Source: Lepidodermella squamata
Lineage: Eukaryota > Animalia > Gastrotricha
DNA length: 64,000 nucleotides
Direction: 5' to 3'
NCBI GenBank assembly: GCA_047495785.1
Contig: JBLDXI010000033.1
Span: forward strand, 1,984,001-2,048,000
The notes beneath the pieces are model-generated. The model saw nothing but the letters and a program-made list of their open reading frames with translations. It was not told the DNA's origin and did not search any database. This document shows, piece after piece, positions 1 through 36,408 of the stretch. A program made the position numbers and the translations under genes. How positions within the stretch are numbered: position 1 is the stretch's first letter; every line of letters begins with the position of its first letter.

Positions 1-1039
1 GAGGACACCCGAATGCCGCCTAACATTACAAAAATTAAAATAAATTGATCTGAAAATGCAGTCCTTACCTGTCGAGTTCTCGCTCAATATCGGCAATTTC
101 TTTCTTTAGTTTAACTTTAGCCTCTTGGATCTCAGCTAACCGAGCTTTCAAAGCTTCGCAGTCGTTCTTGGCCAACTGCACTGCTGCTGTGCTGTCTGAC
201 TTCATTTTTTCGGCATGGTAGTAACTGTAGGCAGCAACGACTCGATCAACATGCTCACGCTCGCGAGTAAGCTGTTGATACTCCAAATAAATTTGACGAT
301 CCTTCTCCATTTTTGACATTCGGGGCTCTAACTGCTCCTTGATCAACGATTCATCGTCCTGCAGCTTCTGCGTTTTCTTCGCAATTTCACGCTTCGCCTC
401 CTCTTTCTTGTCGTCATAAAGGCGCGTGCCTGCAGCCTCTTCGATGAGGGACAAAATTTCGGCAGGTTTCATATTCAAAACTTTGGTGATGCGTCCTTGC
501 ATGATCAGAAAATGGGGATTGTTAACGTTCAGCTGGACTGATCGGAACAAATCTTCGACGCGATTGTTGGTCGCATTCACACCATTGACCTTGTATTTGT
601 TCCGTCCACCAAGTACAATCTGATGAGTAGAATGCCAACGATAAAGGAGGCAAATAATACAGGTAACTTCTTACCTGACGAGAAACCGTAATTTCATCAG
701 CATGCTGATAACCCATTGGACTTTGCTCTTTGTCAGTGTTGTCGAACGTTACGCTGACAATCGCTTTATTGATACCAGCTTGGCCATTCTTGTAGATAAG
801 CTCTTGAAGGTTGGATACGCGTACCTAAAATTCACTTGAAATAGCGTTCAAAAAATTCTGGTTTATTTTACCTGAGTGAGGTTAGAAATTCCCAACACAA
901 AACAAATGGAGTCCAAAATATTAGATTTCCCACTTCCATTGAGACCGGTTATAGCATTGAATTGAGGATCAAAGCCGTGAATTTCGGTTCTACTTGCATA
1001 GGATTTGAAACCCTCTATTACTATCGATTTAACATACAT
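1..1039 (-). CDS. SMC2: Structural maintenance of chromosomes 2 (condensin), 5' part; runs off window start; multi-exon
   Basis: Exon 1 from ATG 1039 reads [50 protein letters not shown] (Walker A). Later exons give [17 protein letters not shown] and [25 protein letters not shown], which are SMC2 signatures. Short GT-AG introns. Confidence 0.97.
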
Positions 1040-12440: not shown

Positions 12441-14099
12441 TCACACACGCAAAGTCTTCAAAGGATCGACGTCTTTCTTTGCTTTCTTCCCAGCCAGTCG
12501 CTTAGCCTTGAGATTTTGACGACGCTTCGAGGGAATCAACACTGGCCCATCGGTGCCTTTCGAAGCAACGTGGACATGTTTGACAGTTTTGAACGCGCCA
12601 ACTCGCTTGACAGTTTTCGGAACAATATAATCTGGAACCGCTTTGATATTTCCGCTGTTCTTAGCGTCAAAAAGCGACTTGTCATGCTGCAGCATAGCCA
12701 AATCTTTCGGGTTAGCCGCGAAGTGACGCTTTAGCTTTTCAGAATTGAGCAACTCGCGCTTTATTTCCTTGAGACGAGCTTCCCTGATAGCACTTCGTGT
12801 CGCAGCTTGCACAGCATCTTTAACTCGATAGCGGAATCCATCAAGCTCTTCCATGCGAAGTTGATAATTTTTTATTGGAACGCCGCACTCCTTCTGAACT
12901 GAGCCAAAAAGTTCAAGATCACGTCCGCTAACAAATGATAAAGCTGTTCCAGAATTAACTCCACGCGCCGTTCGCCCAACGCGGTGAATGTATTGCTTTA
13001 TAGAAGTCGGGAAGTCGAAGTTTACAACATTAGCGACAGCATCGAAATCGATGCCTCGGGCAATGGAGAAATCTGACTGTAACGTCGATGATTTCTTGTC
13101 GCTGCTGCCAACTTGTTTTTTACCACTTTCATCATCCACATTTGGTGTCATATCACAGGCAATAATTCTATCCATACGGCCAGAATTAAACAAATCCAGG
13201 GCGTGGATACGGACACTTGCTGGTAGCTGAGGATTCAATATTGCAGTGGGAAGGCCAAACTGTTCAAGAACTATGCGTAAACGGTATGCTCGGTCAACAT
13301 TATTGATAAAAATTAAAGTACGCCCGCGCAGAAGATGCAACTTCAACAAAGAGACCAGTACCACGAATTTATCTACATCTTCGTTGCAAGTAACTTTATA
13401 ATGCTCCAGCTGATCCGGCGGAGGTAAAACAGCCGAACTGCCGTCCAAGTCATCCTTTTGTTTAACAGTGACAGGGTTCTTCAGGTACAAGGTTTTCAGC
13501 TCGGCCATTTCAGAGGTAATGGTTGCAGAAGTTACAAACGCCTGATAAGTCGATGGCAGATGACCAACAATAGAGCGCATCTCTTCCGAGTAGCCGAAAG
13601 AAAGCAGCAAATCAGCCTCGTCAATCACAAATCCAAGCAAAGATTCCTTGACGCTGAAAGATGACGCCGCTAAATGCGCTAGGATACGGCTTGGTGTTCC
13701 AATAACAATATCTGGATTTGCTGCCAAATATGTTTTTTGAACTGGCAAGGGCACGGTTGGAGACACATCAATATATGTTATTGATTCTCGGCAGCTGGCA
13801 CATAAAGCTTCAATATTGACAGATATTTGATTGCACAGCTCTTTACTAGGCGCAAGGATTAGCAGTTTTACAGACGCCGCATCGACTTTCGCTTTTTGCT
13901 TTGCATTAATGATAATGTTAAGAAAAGGTAGCAAGTATGAGCCTGTTTTTCCAGATCCGGTGCGAGCCTGGGCAACAACGTCTTTACCAGCTAACACTAA
14001 CGGAATAGCTTTTTCTTGAATGAAAGTAGGCTTGGGCCATCCAAGCTTAGCTACATCTTTTAACAAACGCTCATCAAGACCAAATCGATCAAAAGACAT
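12441..14099 (-). CDS. DDX56: DEAD-box RNA helicase DDX56/Dbp9
   Basis: Q motif, AQARTGSGKT, DEADL, SAT, RGIDF and YIHRVGRTAR motifs; Dbp9-specific EARLKEIKRELLNSEKLKRHF and terminal DPLKT. Start uncertain (14099, 14117 or an upstream exon). Confidence 0.96.
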   Translation of the reverse strand: MSFDRFGLDERLLKDVAKLGWPKPTFIQEKAIPLVLAGKDVVAQARTGSGKTGSYLLPFLNIIINAKQKAKVDAASVKLLILAPSKELCNQISVNIEALCASCRESITYIDVSPTVPLPVQKTYLAANPDIVIGTPSRILAHLAASSFSVKESLLGFVIDEADLLLSFGYSEEMRSIVGHLPSTYQAFVTSATITSEMAELKTLYLKNPVTVKQKDDLDGSSAVLPPPDQLEHYKVTCNEDVDKFVVLVSLLKLHLLRGRTLIFINNVDRAYRLRIVLEQFGLPTAILNPQLPASVRIHALDLFNSGRMDRIIACDMTPNVDDESGKKQVGSSDKKSSTLQSDFSIARGIDFDAVANVVNFDFPTSIKQYIHRVGRTARGVNSGTALSFVSGRDLELFGSVQKECGVPIKNYQLRMEELDGFRYRVKDAVQAATRSAIREARLKEIKRELLNSEKLKRHFAANPKDLAMLQHDKSLFDAKNSGNIKAVPDYIVPKTVKRVGAFKTVKHVHVASKGTDGPVLIPSKRRQNLKAKRLAGKKAKKDVDPLKTLRV

Positions 14100-14934
14100 A
14101 TCTAGAAATAAAAACATGAACGGAGTTGTTAAACGTGGTAACGTTATAAAACAAATGTTGCAATAATTGGAGAGTGGTGAAGAGCGACGTTAGAAAAAAC
14201 CAGTTGTAAGTTCTCTAGAACCAAATAGCTCCTTTCATGGGAGCCATTGCAAATCTCAACATTGCATTGCTAATTATTTCAGACCTGAAAGTAACTTCAA
14301 CCGTCAATCGTTATCTCAGTTTAGAAGTTTAGTCATTAAACAAACCCTTAGTTTTGGGGGTGAAGCTTGGTCTATAATAAAGTTTCAGCCTTCCGACACT
14401 CATCCCCAATCAAGCTTCGGGTCCATTACCATAAAAAAGAATACTCGAATGTTGTGATACGCGTCTCTAAGAGTAGCTCTATAGAATGAGAATGATTCCA
14501 CAAGAAAAGTGCTTCATTTCATGACTTTTACAGATAGCACAGCGGCGGTTTTACTTGTTACATACAGGTACAATTTTCATACTCTTATATGTAGGAGTAA
14601 AGTTGCCTGGCTGATGTTATTTTTAGAGTAGAATATTCTTTAAGCAGTGCTCTAGGACCAGTTTACTCTAGGAGACAGCTTTAGAAGTAACGCTACCTGA
14701 CTAAAAGTAGCAGTACAAGGTAAATAGCTAAATGCGGCTGATAGCTGAGTTTAGAACGGAAAATACTACCAGCTGAAGACAGGAAAAGACCATGAATGCT
14801 GACTAATACCAATCAATAATGCTGAAACATAATCCCAATATGGTTCTATTAGGATCCAGGTTCCAGGTTCCAGTCGAAGCCATCCGGCCGCCTTTGGCAG
14901 CAGCGAGAGGTGAGAACACGAAGCACGTGCCACC

Positions 14935-14957
14935 ATGGATGGATGGATGGATGGATG
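14935..14957. repeat. (ATGG)n/(CCAT)n microsatellite forming the LINE 3' tail
   Basis: atggatggatggatggatggatg directly abuts the LINE 3' hairpin. Confidence 0.9.
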
Positions 14958-15092
14958 TTAGACCCTGACACCATTTCTGGTGATTTAACAGGGCTTGGGA
15001 TGATAAGTTATGCCTGTCACCGATAATTCGATGTTAGGCGCAGAGATGGCACAATGTGATACAAAAATAAATTATAAAAATAGAGCTATGAT

Positions 15093-18000
15093 CTATTTGG
15101 TCCATTCAGACACCTGTTCGATGAAGAATTGCTGAAGGTAGGCGGCTTTGCGGCAGGCTTTCGAGCTAGTGAGCTTACGAATGAAGGGGTCGGTCTGTCT
15201 CCATGCCTTCGAGCCGCGGATGAGGAAAGTTCGATCTTGGGTGACACTGTCGGACTGCGTGGCCTTGAGGCTGCCGTTCGTTGAACTGCGGAGTCCGGGG
15301 TTCACCTCTGTTTTCGGCTTGAAGAGTTCGATTAGCTCAACTGGTGCTTCGCCATGGAGGCACTGGAAAACCAACTTAGTTTCGTGAACTTGTCTTCTTC
15401 CAGCGAGAGTGAGCCATTTCAGGTGGCAGCGTAGGTCGTCGACTGGGCACGAGTAGTCCTTCATCATTAGCGCTCGGATGGCGTTGTCTTGCGCTCGATC
15501 AAGGGTCTTCCTGGCAGCAGCAGAACCAGCACTGAGTATCACGTCACAATAGCTGAGTCGCGAGTTCACCAGGCTGTTGTAGATAGCTTTGCGACCGTCT
15601 AACGGGATACCGTTCTGGCCGGCTAGGCGTAGGGCGTATGATCCGCTGCGACACTTGGCGTGGACGAGCTGGGCGTGTTCCTCAAAATTGAGGCGGTTGT
15701 CGACTTGTACTCCGAGTAACTTAATCGATTGTTGAGGGTGAATGAGCGTTCCGTTCACATTGACTGGTAGGTTGACGTCGATTTTCGCGGTTTTCGGGCC
15801 GATGAACATTATTTGAGTCTTCGTTTCATTCAACTTTAGAGAGTTAACACTTAGCCAGTTTGCGACATGGGAGAGCTGTTTTTCGAGTATGGACTTCGCT
15901 TCGTCAATTGTTGACCCAATCGCATAGATCGTAGTGTCGTCAGCGTACATAACGGAGTAGCAGTTGGGATCGTTGATAGTTTCTGGCAGTTCGTTAACAT
16001 AGACGGTGAAGAGAAGAGGGCCAAGGACACTCCCTTGAGGGACACCGTATCTGATTGGCAATGACGACGAGGAGATGTTGCCGACCTTAACCTTCTGGTG
16101 ACGGTTAGACAGATAGTCCGTGAACAGGTTCAGGGCTACGGGCCCAAGACCAAACGAACGGAGAGATTCGATGACCCCAGCAGGGTCCAGCGAATCGAAC
16201 GCTTTTGATAGATCCAGGCTGGCAGTGGCGACGTACTTGTTTTGCGCTGCAGCTACGAGCCACTTCTCAGCGAGCGATACCAGACAGCCGCTTGTCGAGT
16301 GGTGTTTGCGAAAGCCGAACTGGTATTTTGACAGGTAGCTGTTCAGGTGAGGTTTCAGTTGTTCACCGAGGCAACGTTCGAATAGTTTTAGGCATCCAGG
16401 TAGGATCGAAATAGGACGGTAATTCTCAGGCAGCTGTTTCTCGCCAGACTTGTGAATCGGTGTTACGACGCTGGTTTTCCAGTCTTCGGGGAGTCTGTCA
16501 CCTGTGAGGATACTATTGAACAGGGAGACCAAGGCGGCGTTCATGGCCGGGCAGCTAATGCTGTCTCGTAGAACAAATTCAGGAATGCCATCGTTGCCAG
16601 CAGTCTTCTTGTTCGAAAGCTTCTTTGCACTTTCACTCAGATCTTTTTCCGTGATTTCGCGAAACTCGAAGGCCTGTTTGATACTAGATGCGCGGCGTTT
16701 CATATTAGGCGTTGGCAGCGATTTGGCAACTTTTTCTCCGACTGTACAAAAATAAGCGTTGAATTTATCAGCCATGGCAGTAGCTGTGTCGTCATCGATT
16801 TCTTCGTGTTTCTTTTTGTTCGGCATGAAGTCGTTCAGAATTTTCCAGACTTCTTTGGGGTCACCGCCGGCTTCGGTCAGTCGGTCTTCGTAGTGCTTGG
16901 ATTTCCAGTTTCTCGTCAATTTTTTCACTTTTGTTTTGATGGCCTTGAAGCGAGCCAGCGAGTCATCAGATTGGAACGTTAGATGATCTCGGTGAGCCTT
17001 GTTCTTTTCCTCGATGGCTAGTATTAGTTCGACGTCGAGTTTCTTCGATGTATTCAGTTCCAAGCGCTTTTTGGTAGTTTTTCCAGGCTTCACAGTGATA
17101 GTTGTAAAAGGAGCGATGATGTCGAGAACAGCGATAACGTGACCTTTGATCCTGGACCATTTGTCAGCGGAGGAAGAGTTCTCGGGGATAGGATCAGCCT
17201 CCAGGCGGCTATTGAGCATTGAGTTGAATAGTTCAGGCTTATAGCCTTTGAATTTGCGCACGTTTATCTTGTACGGTTTCTGAGCTTCTGCAGTAGTTCT
17301 CAGAAAACAGGCCGTGCCGTAGTGGTCGGAGAAACCGGGTAAGGTAGCTGTGCCCACGGCTTCATGTGACTTGCTAACCCAGATGTGGTCCAGACTCGAG
17401 TTCGAAATAGGCCGGGTGATTTTATAATCGTCAATTTGAACGAATTTGTGAACTTTCAAAATTCTGAATAGGTCTGTAGCAATCGATGGATTAGCGGTAT
17501 TGATGTTCGAGTCGCCATTGATGATGACGCGTGCGTTCTTCTTGTTTTTGAGGTTGATGGTTTCTAGCAGCGAGGAGATTTTATCTTCCCAGTTTGGATG
17601 ATCTGGCGGTCTGTAGATAGAGAAGATACGCTGGACCCCCGATTTGGTTCGGATATCGACCCAGATGTTCTCAATAGGTTGTTCCTTCGTGTGTTCAAGA
17701 ACGCCAGTTGCCGAGACAAAGATACCTTTCTTTACTAGAATTGCAACACCACCTCCGCCCTTCGTTCGCGGATTAGAGTAGATGGTGTAGTCCGGGAACA
17801 AGGTTCTTAGGTTGTCTTCTGGGTGATCCACAGCGAGTTTCGATTCGGAGAAGCAAATCACATCAGGTGTTCGAGGCGCAGTTTTATTGACAGTTAGTCC
17901 AACTTCAGTTGCTTTCCCAGTTAGACTATTTACATTGTAGTGTAGGATATACAGGTTGGCGTTGAGTTGTTCCAGCCTTTGTCGGACTTCTTCCACGCGA

Positions 18001-19616
18001 AGAGTGGGTGGAACAATAGTTGTTTTCGGTGCTGTGGGTGGGACGACAGTTGTTTTCGGTACAGCTGCGGCTTTACCTCGACGCTGTGTACATGGATGTT
18101 GGGAGGTGGTTGAACACTTAGGGCATGACCACCTAACGTTTTTCTTGCTAAAATGCTTCCAGCTTTTCTCGTCCAGTTGGGTGCAGGTGCGGTGCCACCA
18201 GAAGTCGCATTGCGTGCAGAGGATACAGTCGGAGCCGTCTGAGCAGTACTTCGAGCATGATGGGCAGTAGTCGTGACAGATAGGACAAAGCCAGTTTTCC
18301 ATGCAGTTAGCCGGAATGCAGGAGTCATGGCATTTGATATCGCAGTTTGAGCATTTCTTAAAGCGTTTTCCAACAGACTTCTTCAGGTCCTTACAGATCA
18401 GGCAGACTGTTTTCGCGGGGCCAGGATTCGACTCGATGTCCCCACATTTCAGCAGTTTTAGTCGGTCGAATGATGACTTGATGGTAGGAAGAGTGTGTTC
18501 GGCATGGATAACGTGAAGCTTTATGGAGTAGCGGGGCACATTAGAGCCAGCTATATCTTCGCGTCGAAAGGTGATGAGAAGAATTAGAGCCAACAACTGC
18601 TTCGGAAATCGGTGGTCAGCTTTGAGTAAGTTAAAAGCATGATCGACATGCAATAGTGCAGATTTAACAATAAACCCGGTGATAACAACAGTTGCGAGAA
18701 GTCCAAGAAGGTCCAGGCAGTGTTGAAACAGCGGGACATGGTTGCGTAAGACGTTGAGCGTAGATGAGCAGGTGTCGATACCTAGGGCTGCATGGTTCAG
18801 GACAGAAATTGCAATGATGCCAACCTTGAAGATCTTTACAGAGATAGGATAAGAGTTCTCAACCATACAAACATAATGCTGCCTTTTGTGTACAATCATA
18901 TAACACATCAAGCGAAATACAGAATAAGACAGGCAGAGACTGATGACAACTAGAACGAGCAGGGCCATGCTACTGACAATGAACAGACAAGAACAAATCA
19001 GTGCGAGGACCAAGGTAGCATGACTCAAGAGAACCGAGAGTTGTGCAAATCTGGTCAGAAATTTACAAAATAGATGCAGTCGTATACATGGGCCCCTGAG
19101 GGGGCTGAAAACGTTTTGACAAAGGCGTTCAGTGATGAGCTCATCAAGTATATTCATAGTAAAACTGAGGGATTTCTCTAGCGAGCGGAATACCGTTAGT
19201 AACCCATTTTTGCCTGTCAGGTGAGTGGCGATCGAGCATAGCCAATGTCCAGCACCGGGCCATGTCAACCCCAAACGCAAGACAAGCAGTCGTAGGTGTA
19301 AACGGTTTTCGAGTCGGGCGAGGTGAGATCTCAAACTGAAGTATCGTACAGCGAAGTGAAACAGGAAACGATCCCGAAAGCAACAGTACAATTTCAGAGG
19401 GAGGTAACAAGCAGCAGTCAGTAACATATACAAAGTGAGCCATAACAATGAACAGGCGCGGAAGATAAGAACTACAAGGAGATCATTGGATAGTAGGCAA
19501 GTGTACATAAAGAGGTCAAAAGGAGCAGTATTTACAATGTCCGCTGTTCGTAGTAAAAGCACCAGAAGCAGAAGGGCCGTCATACGAGAGAACCAGCACT
19601 GCAAAGAGATGTTCAT
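15093..19616 (-). CDS. LINE polyprotein: hydrophobic leader - 2A peptide - 2x PHD - APE endonuclease - reverse transcriptase
   Basis: 2A: LLKCGDIESNPGP. Two C4HC3-like PHD fingers. APE: HYNVNSL, CFSES, GGGVAI, IYRPP, GDSNI, LDHI, SDH. RT: NYRPIS, QFGFR, LDLSKAFD, GVPQGSVLGP, YADD, LLGV. Confidence 0.95.
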   Translation of the reverse strand: MNISLQCWFSRMTALLLLVLLLRTADIVNTAPFDLFMYTCLLSNDLLVVLIFRACSLLWLTLYMLLTAACYLPLKLYCCFRDRFLFHFAVRYFSLRSHLARLENRLHLRLLVLRLGLTWPGAGHWLCSIATHLTGKNGLLTVFRSLEKSLSFTMNILDELITERLCQNVFSPLRGPCIRLHLFCKFLTRFAQLSVLLSHATLVLALICSCLFIVSSMALLVLVVISLCLSYSVFRLMCYMIVHKRQHYVCMVENSYPISVKIFKVGIIAISVLNHAALGIDTCSSTLNVLRNHVPLFQHCLDLLGLLATVVITGFIVKSALLHVDHAFNLLKADHRFPKQLLALILLITFRREDIAGSNVPRYSIKLHVIHAEHTLPTIKSSFDRLKLLKCGDIESNPGPAKTVCLICKDLKKSVGKRFKKCSNCDIKCHDSCIPANCMENWLCPICHDYCPSCSKYCSDGSDCILCTQCDFWWHRTCTQLDEKSWKHFSKKNVRWSCPKCSTTSQHPCTQRRGKAAAVPKTTVVPPTAPKTTIVPPTLRVEEVRQRLEQLNANLYILHYNVNSLTGKATEVGLTVNKTAPRTPDVICFSESKLAVDHPEDNLRTLFPDYTIYSNPRTKGGGGVAILVKKGIFVSATGVLEHTKEQPIENIWVDIRTKSGVQRIFSIYRPPDHPNWEDKISSLLETINLKNKKNARVIINGDSNINTANPSIATDLFRILKVHKFVQIDDYKITRPISNSSLDHIWVSKSHEAVGTATLPGFSDHYGTACFLRTTAEAQKPYKINVRKFKGYKPELFNSMLNSRLEADPIPENSSSADKWSRIKGHVIAVLDIIAPFTTITVKPGKTTKKRLELNTSKKLDVELILAIEEKNKAHRDHLTFQSDDSLARFKAIKTKVKKLTRNWKSKHYEDRLTEAGGDPKEVWKILNDFMPNKKKHEEIDDDTATAMADKFNAYFCTVGEKVAKSLPTPNMKRRASSIKQAFEFREITEKDLSESAKKLSNKKTAGNDGIPEFVLRDSISCPAMNAALVSLFNSILTGDRLPEDWKTSVVTPIHKSGEKQLPENYRPISILPGCLKLFERCLGEQLKPHLNSYLSKYQFGFRKHHSTSGCLVSLAEKWLVAAAQNKYVATASLDLSKAFDSLDPAGVIESLRSFGLGPVALNLFTDYLSNRHQKVKVGNISSSSLPIRYGVPQGSVLGPLLFTVYVNELPETINDPNCYSVMYADDTTIYAIGSTIDEAKSILEKQLSHVANWLSVNSLKLNETKTQIMFIGPKTAKIDVNLPVNVNGTLIHPQQSIKLLGVQVDNRLNFEEHAQLVHAKCRSGSYALRLAGQNGIPLDGRKAIYNSLVNSRLSYCDVILSAGSAAARKTLDRAQDNAIRALMMKDYSCPVDDLRCHLKWLTLAGRRQVHETKLVFQCLHGEAPVELIELFKPKTEVNPGLRSSTNGSLKATQSDSVTQDRTFLIRGSKAWRQTDPFIRKLTSSKACRKAAYLQQFFIEQVSEWTK
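18417..18440 (-). other. 2A/StopGo ribosome-skipping motif D-I-E-S-N-P-G/P (aa 393-400 of the LINE ORF)
   Basis: Codons GAC ATC GAG TCG AAT CCT GGC CCC exactly match D(V/I)ExNPG-P and are preceded by FDRLKLLKCG, similar to FMDV-type FDLLKLAG. Confidence 0.9.
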
Positions 19617-19858
19617 GCAGTCGGGTTTATCCTGTGAGGGATAAGGACCAAACGCAGCGACCCGCCAAAACGCATAAATTCAAATTTTATGAAAATAATT
19701 CTAATATATAAGGGTTTTATCAAAAAGCAATTAATTTGTTTGGATTCACAATCTCTTTCCTTGACATATTTTTGGCGCTAACATTTTGAAATGAAATGAC
19801 TCACGATTGCATCGCAAAGTCGGAATCGATGCCTGCGTTTAGTCGTAGCTGATGAATA

Positions 19859-21280
19859 ATGAAAGCCAATAGAAAAGCGGATGAATATTACTTTGATGTT
19901 GAGAAGAACCGATATTTCAAGATATTGCCAAGCCACGAGTGTCAGCATGAATCATCATTCCTGACATCCAGTAAAGCACTTGAATTGAACAGCCGGAAAT
20001 ATTGGTTGTCCTCGTATCAACGTTCGACTGGCCACATTTCTGCCATCCCACAGCTTTGTACTCGGAGGCTAATATTTGGTAATAGGTCGCACGAGGCTGC
20101 TTTGCGGCGATATGCCGTATCACGACTGTCGTCATCATCGAATAGCCAGATGCTGGTTTCTTCGAGGATACCTCTCTCGTCAGTCGAATTCATATTAATG
20201 CCGCCGAATAGACTTCTGGAACCTATTACAATATCTATTTCCGATCAATCTGAGATAACGTTACGATTTTTGAAATTAACTGAAGATTCTCATTCGTCTT
20301 ATGTATCGAGAGAAAGCAGAAATACTGTTTTCAGGCTCCATCAATGCCATCCTTCTGCGAAGTTGTATGGTGATATTATTGATCCATGCGTTGTCGAGAA
20401 TCCCTACCGTGTAATATTTGGCACAATGTCTGGTATGGGATTAACCAACTCATCAATTGTTTTACATGATATTGAGCATGGTTATGATGAGGTGAGCTAT
20501 CGGACCCTGGAAATTGCGTCTTCCTAAAAGCTATGAATATTTTCTTTTTCAACATAGACATTATCATTTGGTTCGAGAGAAATATGGTCCTGCGCATGGA
20601 ATGAATCTCACAAGAGACTTGCTATTGGCAGCCATCGCAACGCTTACTGCCTCGACCCTGAAACGCGAGCTGTTCAAACGTTGTTTACCGAGGGAGCAGA
20701 CGTGCTATCTCAAGCTTTCGGCATTGCTTCAACAAACGCTCATCAGGTTTTATTCAATGGCTGCCGAAATAAGAAAGTTATAGCCAATGATTTACGCGAC
20801 GCTTCAAAGGCGATTAAAGTTATCGATAGTTGCAAGTTTTATACTGCATCTATTAATTCGATATTATGTTCACCCTTGGATGATCACGTGTTGTACGTTG
20901 CTGACAGGAGTGGAAATGTAAGTCAACATTTTTTCTGTATTCCATGATAGCATTGTTTATAAAACTGTTAGGTGCTATCATGGGATTTAAGAATGCCAAC
21001 TGAACCCATGTCGAGATTCAGCGAAACTGATCGCTTGCCTCATGTCATCGGTGGGAAATTCAACTTGGATCATTCAGGGCACTATTTATATAATATTGGC
21101 CCGGACAAAGTGATCAGAATATGGAATGCAAGAAATGCCGACCTCGAGGCAATCATCTTAGGACCATCTTCAAAATTGACCAGCGCTGTTTTGGTCACAA
21201 ATATGAATCTTCCATCTCGATATTTAATTTGCCCTTTTATCATAATGGCGACCTCAGCTGGACTTGCGATTGTATGTTGA
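19859..21280 (+). CDS. DCAF4: DDB1- and CUL4-associated factor 4 / WDR21 homolog (WD40), 3 exons
   Basis: YYFDVEKNRYFKILPSH resembles the DCAF4 N-terminal motif FYFDPEKKRYFRLLPGH; also IWSCAW, ADVLSQAF, LFNGCR..DLR and WDLR. Confidence 0.85.
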
Positions 21281-21383
21281 AATACAGCGGCAGTATCCTA
21301 CAATTTTGACGGACTATTTGTCGTTGACATTTTATCCAATAATCATCTCGTTTTCGATAGAATTGTATTTAAAATTAATTTCT

Positions 21384-35216: not shown

Positions 35217-36276
35217 TTAGATGGTAGGCATGGGCGAAAAAAGATCAAGAGGATCTTGGTCTATAGATTTGAAGAAGTCTTCCAACTGATCCGACAAAAG
35301 TAAGTCGTTGCACAAATTCTGTTCCGCTCCGAAGCCTTTAGATGATTGCGAAGTACCCGAGAAAACTTCAGATGATGACAGAAAATTATCCATGTCAAAA
35401 TCGGTATCGATTACAACTGAAGTGCTTTCACCTACATTTTCACACTTATTTGCGAGATTTCCCTCTTGGTTATAAATAGGCTCTACTAAACGATCCATAA
35501 CATCATTCACGCATTTAGTATAAACATGGTCATTCGAAAGCGCCTCTACGGCGGTCTCTCGCAAAAATCCATTACATCCTTCGACATCTGACAAAATGAT
35601 GGTGATTGGGTTCGCCAAACTGAAGCTCGACGGCGATGCGCATTCGAATTTTGCTGGATGATGCGAAGCAGTTTGATTGCCGATTGACGCTGGAATGAAG
35701 CCGTCTTCGAGCTGCAGCTCGGCACTTGAATAAGACTGAGGAGCAGAGTGAGAAACAGGAAACGAGCCCTTCCCTTCTGCAGAGGGCTGGCTAAGAGCGC
35801 GGCAGGCTCAGACTCGCATTCCAAGTTTCCCAGAATCATAGACCTCAGACTTTTGTTTTGCTGGACGAGCTCAGTGCTTTGGGTTTTTAGGCGCATGTTT
35901 TCCTGAATAAGCTGTTCTTTCTCTTCCTCCATCTGTTTAAGGAGCTCCTCAAGCTCTTCCATCCTGTGTGAAAAATAATGGTTATGAAGCATGTCATAAT
36001 CAAACAGTTGAAGTCAGCTAACCTCGCCTTCTTACGATCCCTGGCGGTTTGTGCGGCTATCCTGTTCTTGAGCTTTCTCCGTTCCATCCGATCCTCTGGG
36101 CTGAGTCCAGTCAAGCGTGACCGCTTTGCTGCTGGAGCATCATTGCTGATGATGCTCGAACAAGCTGATGGTGGGCGAGGAAGCGGTTGAACAGTGGCAA
36201 CAATTTTAGGAGGCTCTGGTGCTGCAGCAACTGATGCAACAGCTGGTGCTTGACGCAAGACATATACCTTCACCAT
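35217..36276 (-). CDS. XBP1: X-box binding protein 1 (bZIP); spliced (stop 35217) and unspliced (stop 35546) isoforms
   Basis: bZIP RRKLKNRIAAQTARDRKKAR|MEELE. Unspliced frame has hydrophobic HR2 FLFLTLLLSLI. Spliced frame has DHVYTK and terminal DLFSP, as in XBP1s. Confidence 0.96.
35780..35802 (-). other. IRE1-excised unconventional 23-nt intron of XBP1
   Basis: Two hairpins with 7-nt CNG^CNGN loops: GAGC-CTG^CCGC-GCTC and CCCT-CTG^CAGA-AGGG. Removing 23 nt joins the bZIP frame to the frame of ORF 35217-35618. Confidence 0.95.
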
Positions 36277-36408
36277 CTCAACTTCCGACTTCAAGGAAAG
36301 CAATTCAGATACTTGAAACTTCTGGTCACTTTGCGATGTTCAGAATATTTTTTGTCGATAAATGTCGACGACAAATCGAGATAATTGACAGCGGAAGAGA
36401 CAAGTCTC

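Follow-up and report, generated by a model that had tools for sequence, protein, structure and literature searches.

A hydrophobic, partly selected leader precedes a 2A-like peptide in a single-ORF LINE of Lepidodermella squamata

The DNA analyzed was a stretch of 64,000 nt (hereafter the window) of Lepidodermella squamata contig JBLDXI010000033.1, and all coordinates are positions within it. The subject is a full-length long interspersed nuclear element (LINE) on the minus strand, the 5' end of which is approximate (about 19640-19680). Its stop-to-stop open reading frame (ORF) extends from 19679 to 15093, and translation from the ATG at 19616 to the stop at 15093 gives 1507 aa, comprising in order a 399-aa hydrophobic leader, the 2A-like sequence GDIESNPG/P, two PHD-type fingers, an APE endonuclease, and a reverse transcriptase (RT) (Table 1). 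The G399/P400 junction lies at 18420/18419, and the product downstream of the predicted skip site is 1108 aa. The positions, the 399-aa leader, the 1108-aa enzyme, and the hydrophobic segments quoted in an initial annotation of this locus were all found, on the minus strand. The order of APE followed by RT in one ORF is that of the APE-type non-LTR (long terminal repeat) retrotransposons. No terminal repeats were found in the element, and its 3' end is a short tandem repeat, one of the two kinds of 3' end (the other being poly(A)) seen in this class. The initial annotation had also described the LINE as lacking a separate ORF1, which was borne out: on the minus strand between 19617 and 20600 there were three stop-free stretches of 74-90 codons and nothing longer, and most of the DNA upstream of the LINE is the opposite strand of a host gene that encodes a DCAF4 beta-propeller. 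Dispersed copies were detected as many variant contigs matching the 3' part and as a second copy of the leader. A search for target-site duplications gave only matches of 5-7 nt, the size expected by chance. The Rfam search of 14000-20500 returned no match, and no tandem or long direct repeats were found in the leader.

Table 1. Features of the LINE within the window
Feature	Position	Strand	Basis
Full-length single-ORF APE-type non-LTR retrotransposon (LINE)	14935..19640	-	ORF, 3' microsatellite, second copy aligned up to 19637
20-codon upstream ORF (uORF), TGA overlapping the first ATG of the leader (ATGA); may begin outside the element	19613..19675	-	sequence
Leader, aa 1-399, same frame as the enzyme	18420..19616	-	0 stops; T excess at codon position 2; dN/dS 0.31 in codons 175-246
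Signal-like hydrophobic run, aa 13-22	19551..19580	-	sequence; Kyte-Doolittle (KD) window 3-21 = 1.74
Hydrophobic region, aa 37-74, 1-2 predicted helices	19395..19508	-	KD 2.12; 21-aa uncharged run
45-aa uncharged core, aa 190-234, predicted two-helix hairpin, strongest membrane signal	18915..19049	-	KD 2.91; longest-run P 0.03; no charge introduced by the substitutions of the diverged copy
Last strong hydrophobic segment, aa 296-322, about 75 residues before the skip site	18651..18731	-	KD 2.11
2A-like StopGo peptide, aa 381-400, ending GDIESNPG/P	18417..18476	-	full match to -GD(V/I)ExNPG/P-; predicted activity
First PHD-type C4HC3 finger, aa 405-447	18276..18404	-	cysteine pattern; weak Pfam C1_1 match, E 0.007
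Second PHD finger, aa 451-501	18114..18266	-	C4HC3 pattern; Pfam PHD E 1.4e-4, 22.2 bits (curated cut-off 24, just missed)
APE endonuclease domain	17322..17942	-	Pfam Exo_endo_phos E 5.8e-12; motif residues present
Reverse transcriptase domain, YADD at aa 1224	15702..16457	-	Pfam RVT_1 E 2.4e-36
3' terminal 4-nt microsatellite, 5.8 copies	14935..14957	-	3' untranslated region (UTR) of about 135 nt precedes

No stop interrupts the 400 codons of the leader frame, whereas the two remaining sense frames contain 26 and 13. The mean in Markov simulations of orders 0-2 was 12.7-16.4 stops, and none of 5000 simulated frames was open at any order. The 1.2-kb stop-free stretch reported to precede the 2A was thereby confirmed, and the leader as a chance-open frame was rejected. 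T occupied 43% of second codon positions versus 35% in stop-free simulations (P<=0.0007), and the grand average of hydropathy (GRAVY) of the leader was 0.73 versus 0.44-0.45 (P about 0.03). In-frame ATGs were located at aa 1, 12, 37, 64, 154, 217, 237, 240, and 251, and none thereafter; the first two have a pyrimidine at -3. Out-of-frame ATGs numbered 16 (13-15 expected) and showed no depletion. Initiation immediately upstream of the 2A, which would have made the leader an untranslated region, was checked: no AUG is present there, and because the last in-frame ATG is that of aa 251 and 16 out-of-frame ATGs would have to be passed, a start by scanning to near the 2A is unlikely. The uORF stop and the leader ATG have the overlapping arrangement of termination-reinitiation. 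The diverged copy described below appears to share the 30 nt surrounding this ATG (19608-19637), since the contigs of both copies end there.

Sequencing run X1 contains the sequence of the window itself and a diverged second copy (840-letter contig), with 115 differences over 18847-19637 (about 86% alike). The second copy also carries the leader, by which a local flank fused to the LINE was rejected. The selection test was applied to the 40 of 111 differences that were listed, forming a contiguous block at 18879-19092 (codons 175-246). These were distributed over codon positions 1, 2, and 3 as 13, 10, and 17, and comprised 18.5 synonymous changes versus 11.7 expected (P 0.007) or, with a type-matched null, 18 versus 11.6 (P 0.019). 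The dN/dS of the leader against this copy was 0.31 over 73 codons (P 0.007-0.02), and not the value near 1 that the initial annotation had associated with a non-coding leader. Of the 20 amino-acid substitutions, one introduces a charge, at a site outside the uncharged core. The lack of stops in the diverged block is uninformative alone, as 39% of such blocks would be expected to lack them under neutrality. In run X2, from a separate study and possibly of RNA, one contig spans leader, 2A, and PHD (18164-19524) with 14 differences and no gap; six of the 11 listed leader changes were synonymous (pN/pS 0.27, P 0.03-0.06). Run X3 gave no coverage of the element. Part of the leader is under purifying selection, and these results support the leader as a real, selected coding region of the element. 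Separately, two X1 contigs join over a 1148-base gap (17542-18692) that removes the 2A, both PHD fingers, and part of APE, with sides of 31-39 letters; these are possibly a deleted non-autonomous derivative or an artefact.

The membrane character of the leader was analyzed with 19-residue windows, a hydrophobic segment being defined by KD>=1.6. Six windows reached this value (aa 3-21, 46-64, 190-208, 211-229, 262-280, and 303-321), versus an average of 5.2 in shuffles of the leader residues (P 0.39); the 45-residue uncharged run at aa 190-234 alone stood out (longest-run P 0.03). With an approximate scale of membrane insertion, only aa 211-229 were clearly favoured, and aa 46-64 and 303-321 were marginal. 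As judged from sequence, the membrane-protein-like nature of the leader is supported, and a model with about 3-5 membrane helices is credible. Of the polytopic leader previously proposed, membrane-type segments are present, but the number of 6-8 was overstated. An AlphaFold2 model predicted from the single sequence without alignment was all-helical, at a predicted local distance difference test score (pLDDT) of 50 and a predicted template modelling score (pTM) of 0.27, and Foldseek with this poor model returned one meaningless match (E 8.8). No leader homolog was found among 7996 candidates in a word-seeded search of 220-700-aa proteins or among 1.84 billion representatives in a full HMMER scan; no Pfam family was matched at E<=1, and phmmer gave no match to the leaders of 28 relatives. 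An ESM Atlas feature search with this leader and that of the relative P0023 was blank, which shows neither novelty nor absence. Because no Pfam family is present, the leader has no likeness to env or esterase, and an accessory of either kind (the latter an SGNH hydrolase) was rejected on this ground and on the absence of a Foldseek match with the poor model.

The 2A motif was compared with published 2A sequences. GDIESNPGP at aa 392-400, upstream of APE, agrees with the consensus -GD(V/I)ExNPG/P- (Odon 2013, PMC3708506). The peptide has Leu at -14, -12, and -11, and the -14 to -10 zone has been linked to skipping (PMC13405545). The motif is not sufficient for skipping, and many 2As of the CR1 clade are inactive (Odon 2013, PMC3708506). 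The own 2A peptide of this LINE was not found in the 2026 library by the terms searched (PMC13405545). The LINE 2A would probably give partial or full skipping.

LINEs of the 2A-PHD-APE-RT type without ORF1 are known, for example Crack-17_BF, CR1-1_BF, and STR-24_SP (Odon 2013, PMC3708506; Luke 2013, PMC3894237). They share with the present element one ORF, the lack of ORF1, a canonical 2A, and a PHD between 2A and APE followed by RT; their upstream part is not described as hydrophobic in the text available, whereas here it is 399 aa long with several membrane-type segments and measurable selection. In the published set the 2A lies about 40-80 aa from the N-terminus, and most members lack ORF1 (Odon 2013, PMC3708506). 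The 2A examined here falls outside this range, being 399 aa from the first ATG; even if translation began at the last in-frame one, the distance would be at least 149 aa.

Relatives were collected by a search with aa 395-1518 of P0001, which gave 1483 matches, and the 120 listed ones were analyzed (identity 27-33% at best), their 2A sites being scored with a relaxed motif. A 2A-like site was present in 30 of these 120 ORF2 relatives, behind leaders of 9-307 aa (median 118), so the published range of 40-80 aa appears too narrow rather than defining. A segment of KD>=1.6 occurred upstream of the 2A helix in 23 of the 30, in none of 30 equal-length stretches downstream of the 2A, and in four of the 90 N-termini without 2A, many of which may be truncated or come from other clades. 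For the 28 testable leaders (two were too short), shuffles predicted 7.8 with a segment, and 23 were seen. The distance from the end of the last segment to the skip site was 34-95 residues (median 60), compared with 75 here. Besides the branch of this element, these relatives fell in five separate branches of the RT tree (a quick tree with SH-aLRT support only and weak deep forks). The segment-linker-2A layout is present in unrelated leaders of several RT lineages. The 399-aa leader is the longest among those examined. The leader module of the initial annotation is indeed much longer than published ones, but it is not a one-off, as 23 of 30 relatives share the layout. The layout is general and is more important than the special features of this leader, namely its size (399 aa), its orphan sequence, and the direct dN/dS evidence.

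A second family (P0020, P0023, P0036, and P0028 with cluster members) has leaders of 214-320 aa with 2-4 segments, 14 of them longer than 200 aa; long leaders have therefore arisen more than once. Its leaders are 40-67% alike versus 76-91% for ORF2. A 9-residue repeat in variable number was observed between the hydrophobic segments of these leaders. In P0012, P0015, and P0033 (N-terminal 131-158 aa), two tandem 2A-like motifs have a single hydrophobic segment between them, and such leaders would, by their sequence, yield a small membrane peptide cut out at both ends. A metagenome scan with ORF2 of the element gave 23 pattern matches, none of which was confirmed. The same scan with the second (300-aa-leader) family gave nine loci, two of them with a 2A and one shared 128-aa leader, and none useful for dN/dS. 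In those two contigs (L005:1790-2260 and L008:2650-3120), the common leader has one hydrophobic segment; a variant 2A follows, and the finger after it is interrupted by a stop. A 2A-PHD-APE profile search gave 25 distant proteins and no close kin; eight of the 25 had a 2A, five of these with a hydrophobic segment. A tree of 121 mostly unnamed RTs grouped the element with P0002 and P0003 only (SH-aLRT 99). With its PHD and microsatellite tail the element may be CR1/L2-like.

Two known systems offer precedents for such membrane targeting. The HR2 segment of XBP1u, about 52 aa from the translational pause, recruits the signal recognition particle (SRP) and carries the mRNA to the endoplasmic reticulum (ER) (PMC6624018). 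XBP1u, a model in function only, is alike in having a hydrophobic segment about 50-60 residues ahead of a ribosome pause (75 in the LINE, median 60 in the relatives), and 2A is reported to pause the ribosome (PMC12846837). It differs as a host gene without homology, in which no release with continued translation occurs and HR2 inserts poorly, whereas the LINE leader has several segments. The RNA of Ty1 also reaches the ER via SRP; here retrotransposon RNA is delivered during translation and nucleates particles, yet Ty1 is an LTR element with the signal within Gag and neither 2A nor membrane leader (PMC3945221).

Our preferred reading, to which we give about an even chance, is that the selected hydrophobic leader would enter the ER membrane during synthesis and that the 2A would then free the enzyme beside the membrane-docked LINE RNA. 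Translation would start at the first AUGs, SRP would bind the hydrophobic segments and dock the ribosome with the LINE mRNA on the ER or outer nuclear membrane, and the 2A pause would come about 50-80 residues past the last segment, as in XBP1u. Skipping at G399 would free the PHD-PHD-APE-RT enzyme on the cytosolic side, beside its own template, and a read-through fraction would remain membrane-tethered. Docking on the ER would give the ORF1-less element an assembly place near the nuclear envelope. In this element the leader may have grown until it held 3-5 helices. T-rich 5' sequence is its possible source, and membrane proteins that arose de novo in yeast make such an origin plausible (PMC7005711). 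Selection would act on membrane targeting and not on a precise fold, and the leader could therefore grow and change fast.

Several points weigh against ER docking followed by 2A release, the first of which concern the 2A itself. Two natural peptides that agree with it in the last 13 residues and differ further upstream were model-classed as 'falloff only' and 'nonskipping only' (PMC13405545 supplement), highly active 2As were present in only 43 of 580 RT-element contigs, with 56% mid-range (bioRxiv 2026.09.24.754024), and 2A can be inhibited when the protein ahead of it is translocated into the ER (PMC2978324). In addition, XBP1u-like timing fits short leaders better, because several upstream segments put the ribosome on the ER before the 2A is reached. 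The classes of the two peptides and the inhibition by translocation, with the inactive CR1-clade 2As (Odon 2013, PMC3708506), speak for a weak or dead 2A and for the 1507-aa enzyme, tethered by the leader to the ER or nuclear envelope, as the main product. We consider this improbable, as the core motif is perfect, Leu residues occupy the skipping-linked zone, and the 2A motif is retained across many lineages; a tethered enzyme would also presumably reach chromatin with difficulty.

Further points of this kind come from the copies and from DNA composition. The estimate of selection covers 73 of the 399 codons and uses the 40 differences listed out of 111, and the X1 and X2 tests overlap, because three variant sites are common to both comparisons. 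The only diverged copy, that of X1, has six indels (-1, -4, +1, -1, -1, and +7) with net frameshifts, and another contig, similar in depth and divergence, carries a 37-base deletion within the 2A helix. If the frameshifted copy were active, the coding reading of the leader would be weakened. Frameshifts in other active copies had been named in the initial annotation as grounds for abandoning a coding leader; the second copy is indeed frameshifted, yet it looks dead, and probably it and the contig with the 37-base deletion are one dead copy. The +1 frame of the leader DNA has a GRAVY of 0.58 versus 0.73, T-rich DNA alone yielding hydrophobic frames, and when 93-aa frames are drawn at random from AT- or T-rich DNA, 19-37% contain a segment of KD>=1.6. 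A non-coding T-rich 5' UTR, open by chance or recent drift and with initiation near the 2A, would accommodate the frameshifts, the hydrophobicity that follows largely from composition, and the lack of leader homologs. It is nevertheless very improbable in view of the 0 of 5000 open simulations, the synonymous excess in the leader frame, and the absence of an in-frame AUG after aa 251.

The survey of relatives has limits of its own. They are not independent samples: they share RT-tree branches, and the 23 leaders with a segment are therefore not 23 independent events. Moreover, the nearest RT relatives, P0002 and P0003, have neither 2A nor leader in their called proteins, although their contigs are short and the protein calls may start late. 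The role of the 2A and the upstream piece in ORF1-less LINEs has been a question since 2013, and the standing idea is down-regulation. Following this idea, the leader would be a translated throttle, a 5' sequence that bears the promoter and, having the first AUG at its beginning, has to be kept free of stops, with the 2A trimming it and lowering enzyme output and hydrophobicity marking the waste peptide for destruction. The 16 undepleted out-of-frame ATGs imply that the frame must be read through; 2A has been proposed as a down-regulator of ORF2 (Luke 2013, PMC3894237), 59% of tested ORF2p-linked 2As lowered protein abundance (PMC13405545), and the second family shows quick leader turnover and internal repeats. 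We rate this explanation as unlikely, since stop avoidance alone yields neither a dN/dS of 0.31 nor the T excess at position 2, and since the hydrophobic residues of the relatives are concentrated in one discrete segment, the spacing of which from the 2A varies rather little (23 versus 7.8 expected).

The initial annotation favoured a released leader that folds as a multi-pass membrane protein with a later job of its own, standing in for ORF1. Such jobs could be a particle-assembly scaffold, passage of the nuclear envelope, vesicle loading, or damping of host defence; a vesicle-export role of this leader finds no support. A leader of 399 aa far exceeds the needs of targeting, its dN/dS of 0.31 comes with conservative swaps in the core, and the second family also grew a 300-aa multi-segment leader. 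Links between LINEs and membranes exist in the lipid-binding esterase ORF1p (PMC3905857) and in ESCRT dependence (PMC5478143). On the other hand, the leader has no homolog among the representatives scanned or the 28 relatives' leaders and no Pfam family, its segments are no more clustered than in shuffles, the single-sequence model is poor, and one segment suffices for most relatives. The multi-pass protein is thus doubtful, though it ranks slightly ahead of the throttle. Stated in full, and put forward with the same reserve, ORF1-less 2A LINEs would have repeatedly made membrane proteins from T-rich 5' ends, and the 399-aa orphan would be a StopGo-released multi-pass protein organising the particle on the ER or nuclear envelope or loading vesicles, an envelope-like function without envelope ancestry. 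If true, the released leader would be the first integral membrane protein of a non-LTR retrotransposon.

Other N-terminal modules differ from this leader. Variable N-terminal sequence is reported on LINE ORF2p, including Josephin and OTU deubiquitinases and an ORF1p-2A-ORF2p arrangement (2026 preprint, PMC13405545); these are likewise longer N-terminal parts on 2A-bearing ORF2 proteins, but they are recognisable soluble domains, and no membrane leader is named in the text available. The esterase ORF1p of ZfL2-1, CR1, and RTEX is also an N-terminal LINE module with membrane affinity in related clades; it is a separate ORF with a soluble, lipid-surface-binding SGNH fold (PMC3905857), a domain missing from the LINE leader. 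The 2A-like signals of sea-urchin NLR genes combine 2A skipping with ER targeting, so that the product of a single ORF reaches two destinations (Roulston et al. 2016, PMC4981915). There, the 26-aa 2A itself is the signal and the genes are host immune genes, whereas the LINE segments are separate and far upstream (PMC4981915). A membrane or signal leader on a LINE ORF2 was not found described in the open literature; subscription papers, theses, Repbase reports, and the Odon and bioRxiv supplements lie outside this scope, and genome maps there could show such leaders. Word look-ups in the available text of PMC12338488, PMC4981915, PMC5408684, PMC12846837, and bioRxiv 2026.09.24.754024 likewise returned no such leader.

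That unrelated leaders have a membrane segment at a fixed spacing ahead of the 2A points to targeting of the LINE RNA to the ER by the element itself, which, if true, would connect the biology of LINEs with SRP and the nuclear envelope. Whether such leaders turn into real membrane proteins is best asked of the present element, because it is an extreme case with measurable selection; its leader may be a membrane protein that originated within a transposon from T-rich sequence.

The LINE is flanked by two divergently oriented genes, a DEAD-box helicase gene (12441-14189, minus strand), which we take to be DDX56-like, and the DCAF4-propeller gene (19845-21300, plus strand). Its 5' end is about 200 nt from the latter, and a host bidirectional promoter could drive the LINE. 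An adapter-like loose end was observed in run X2 at 19845. Within the ORF, the PHD-APE linker (18004-18060) contains a 30-nt near-duplication of 10 codons rich in Pro, Thr, and Val. Immediately beyond the 3' tail, at 14851-14930, the DNA is richer in G+C for about 80 bases and includes 3.3 copies of a 7-nt repeat; another insertion may have left this remnant. Finally, a bZIP gene unrelated to the LINE is located at 35546-36339 on the minus strand (Pfam bZIP_1 E 1e-4); it has a hydrophobic stretch near its end and presumably resembles XBP1.

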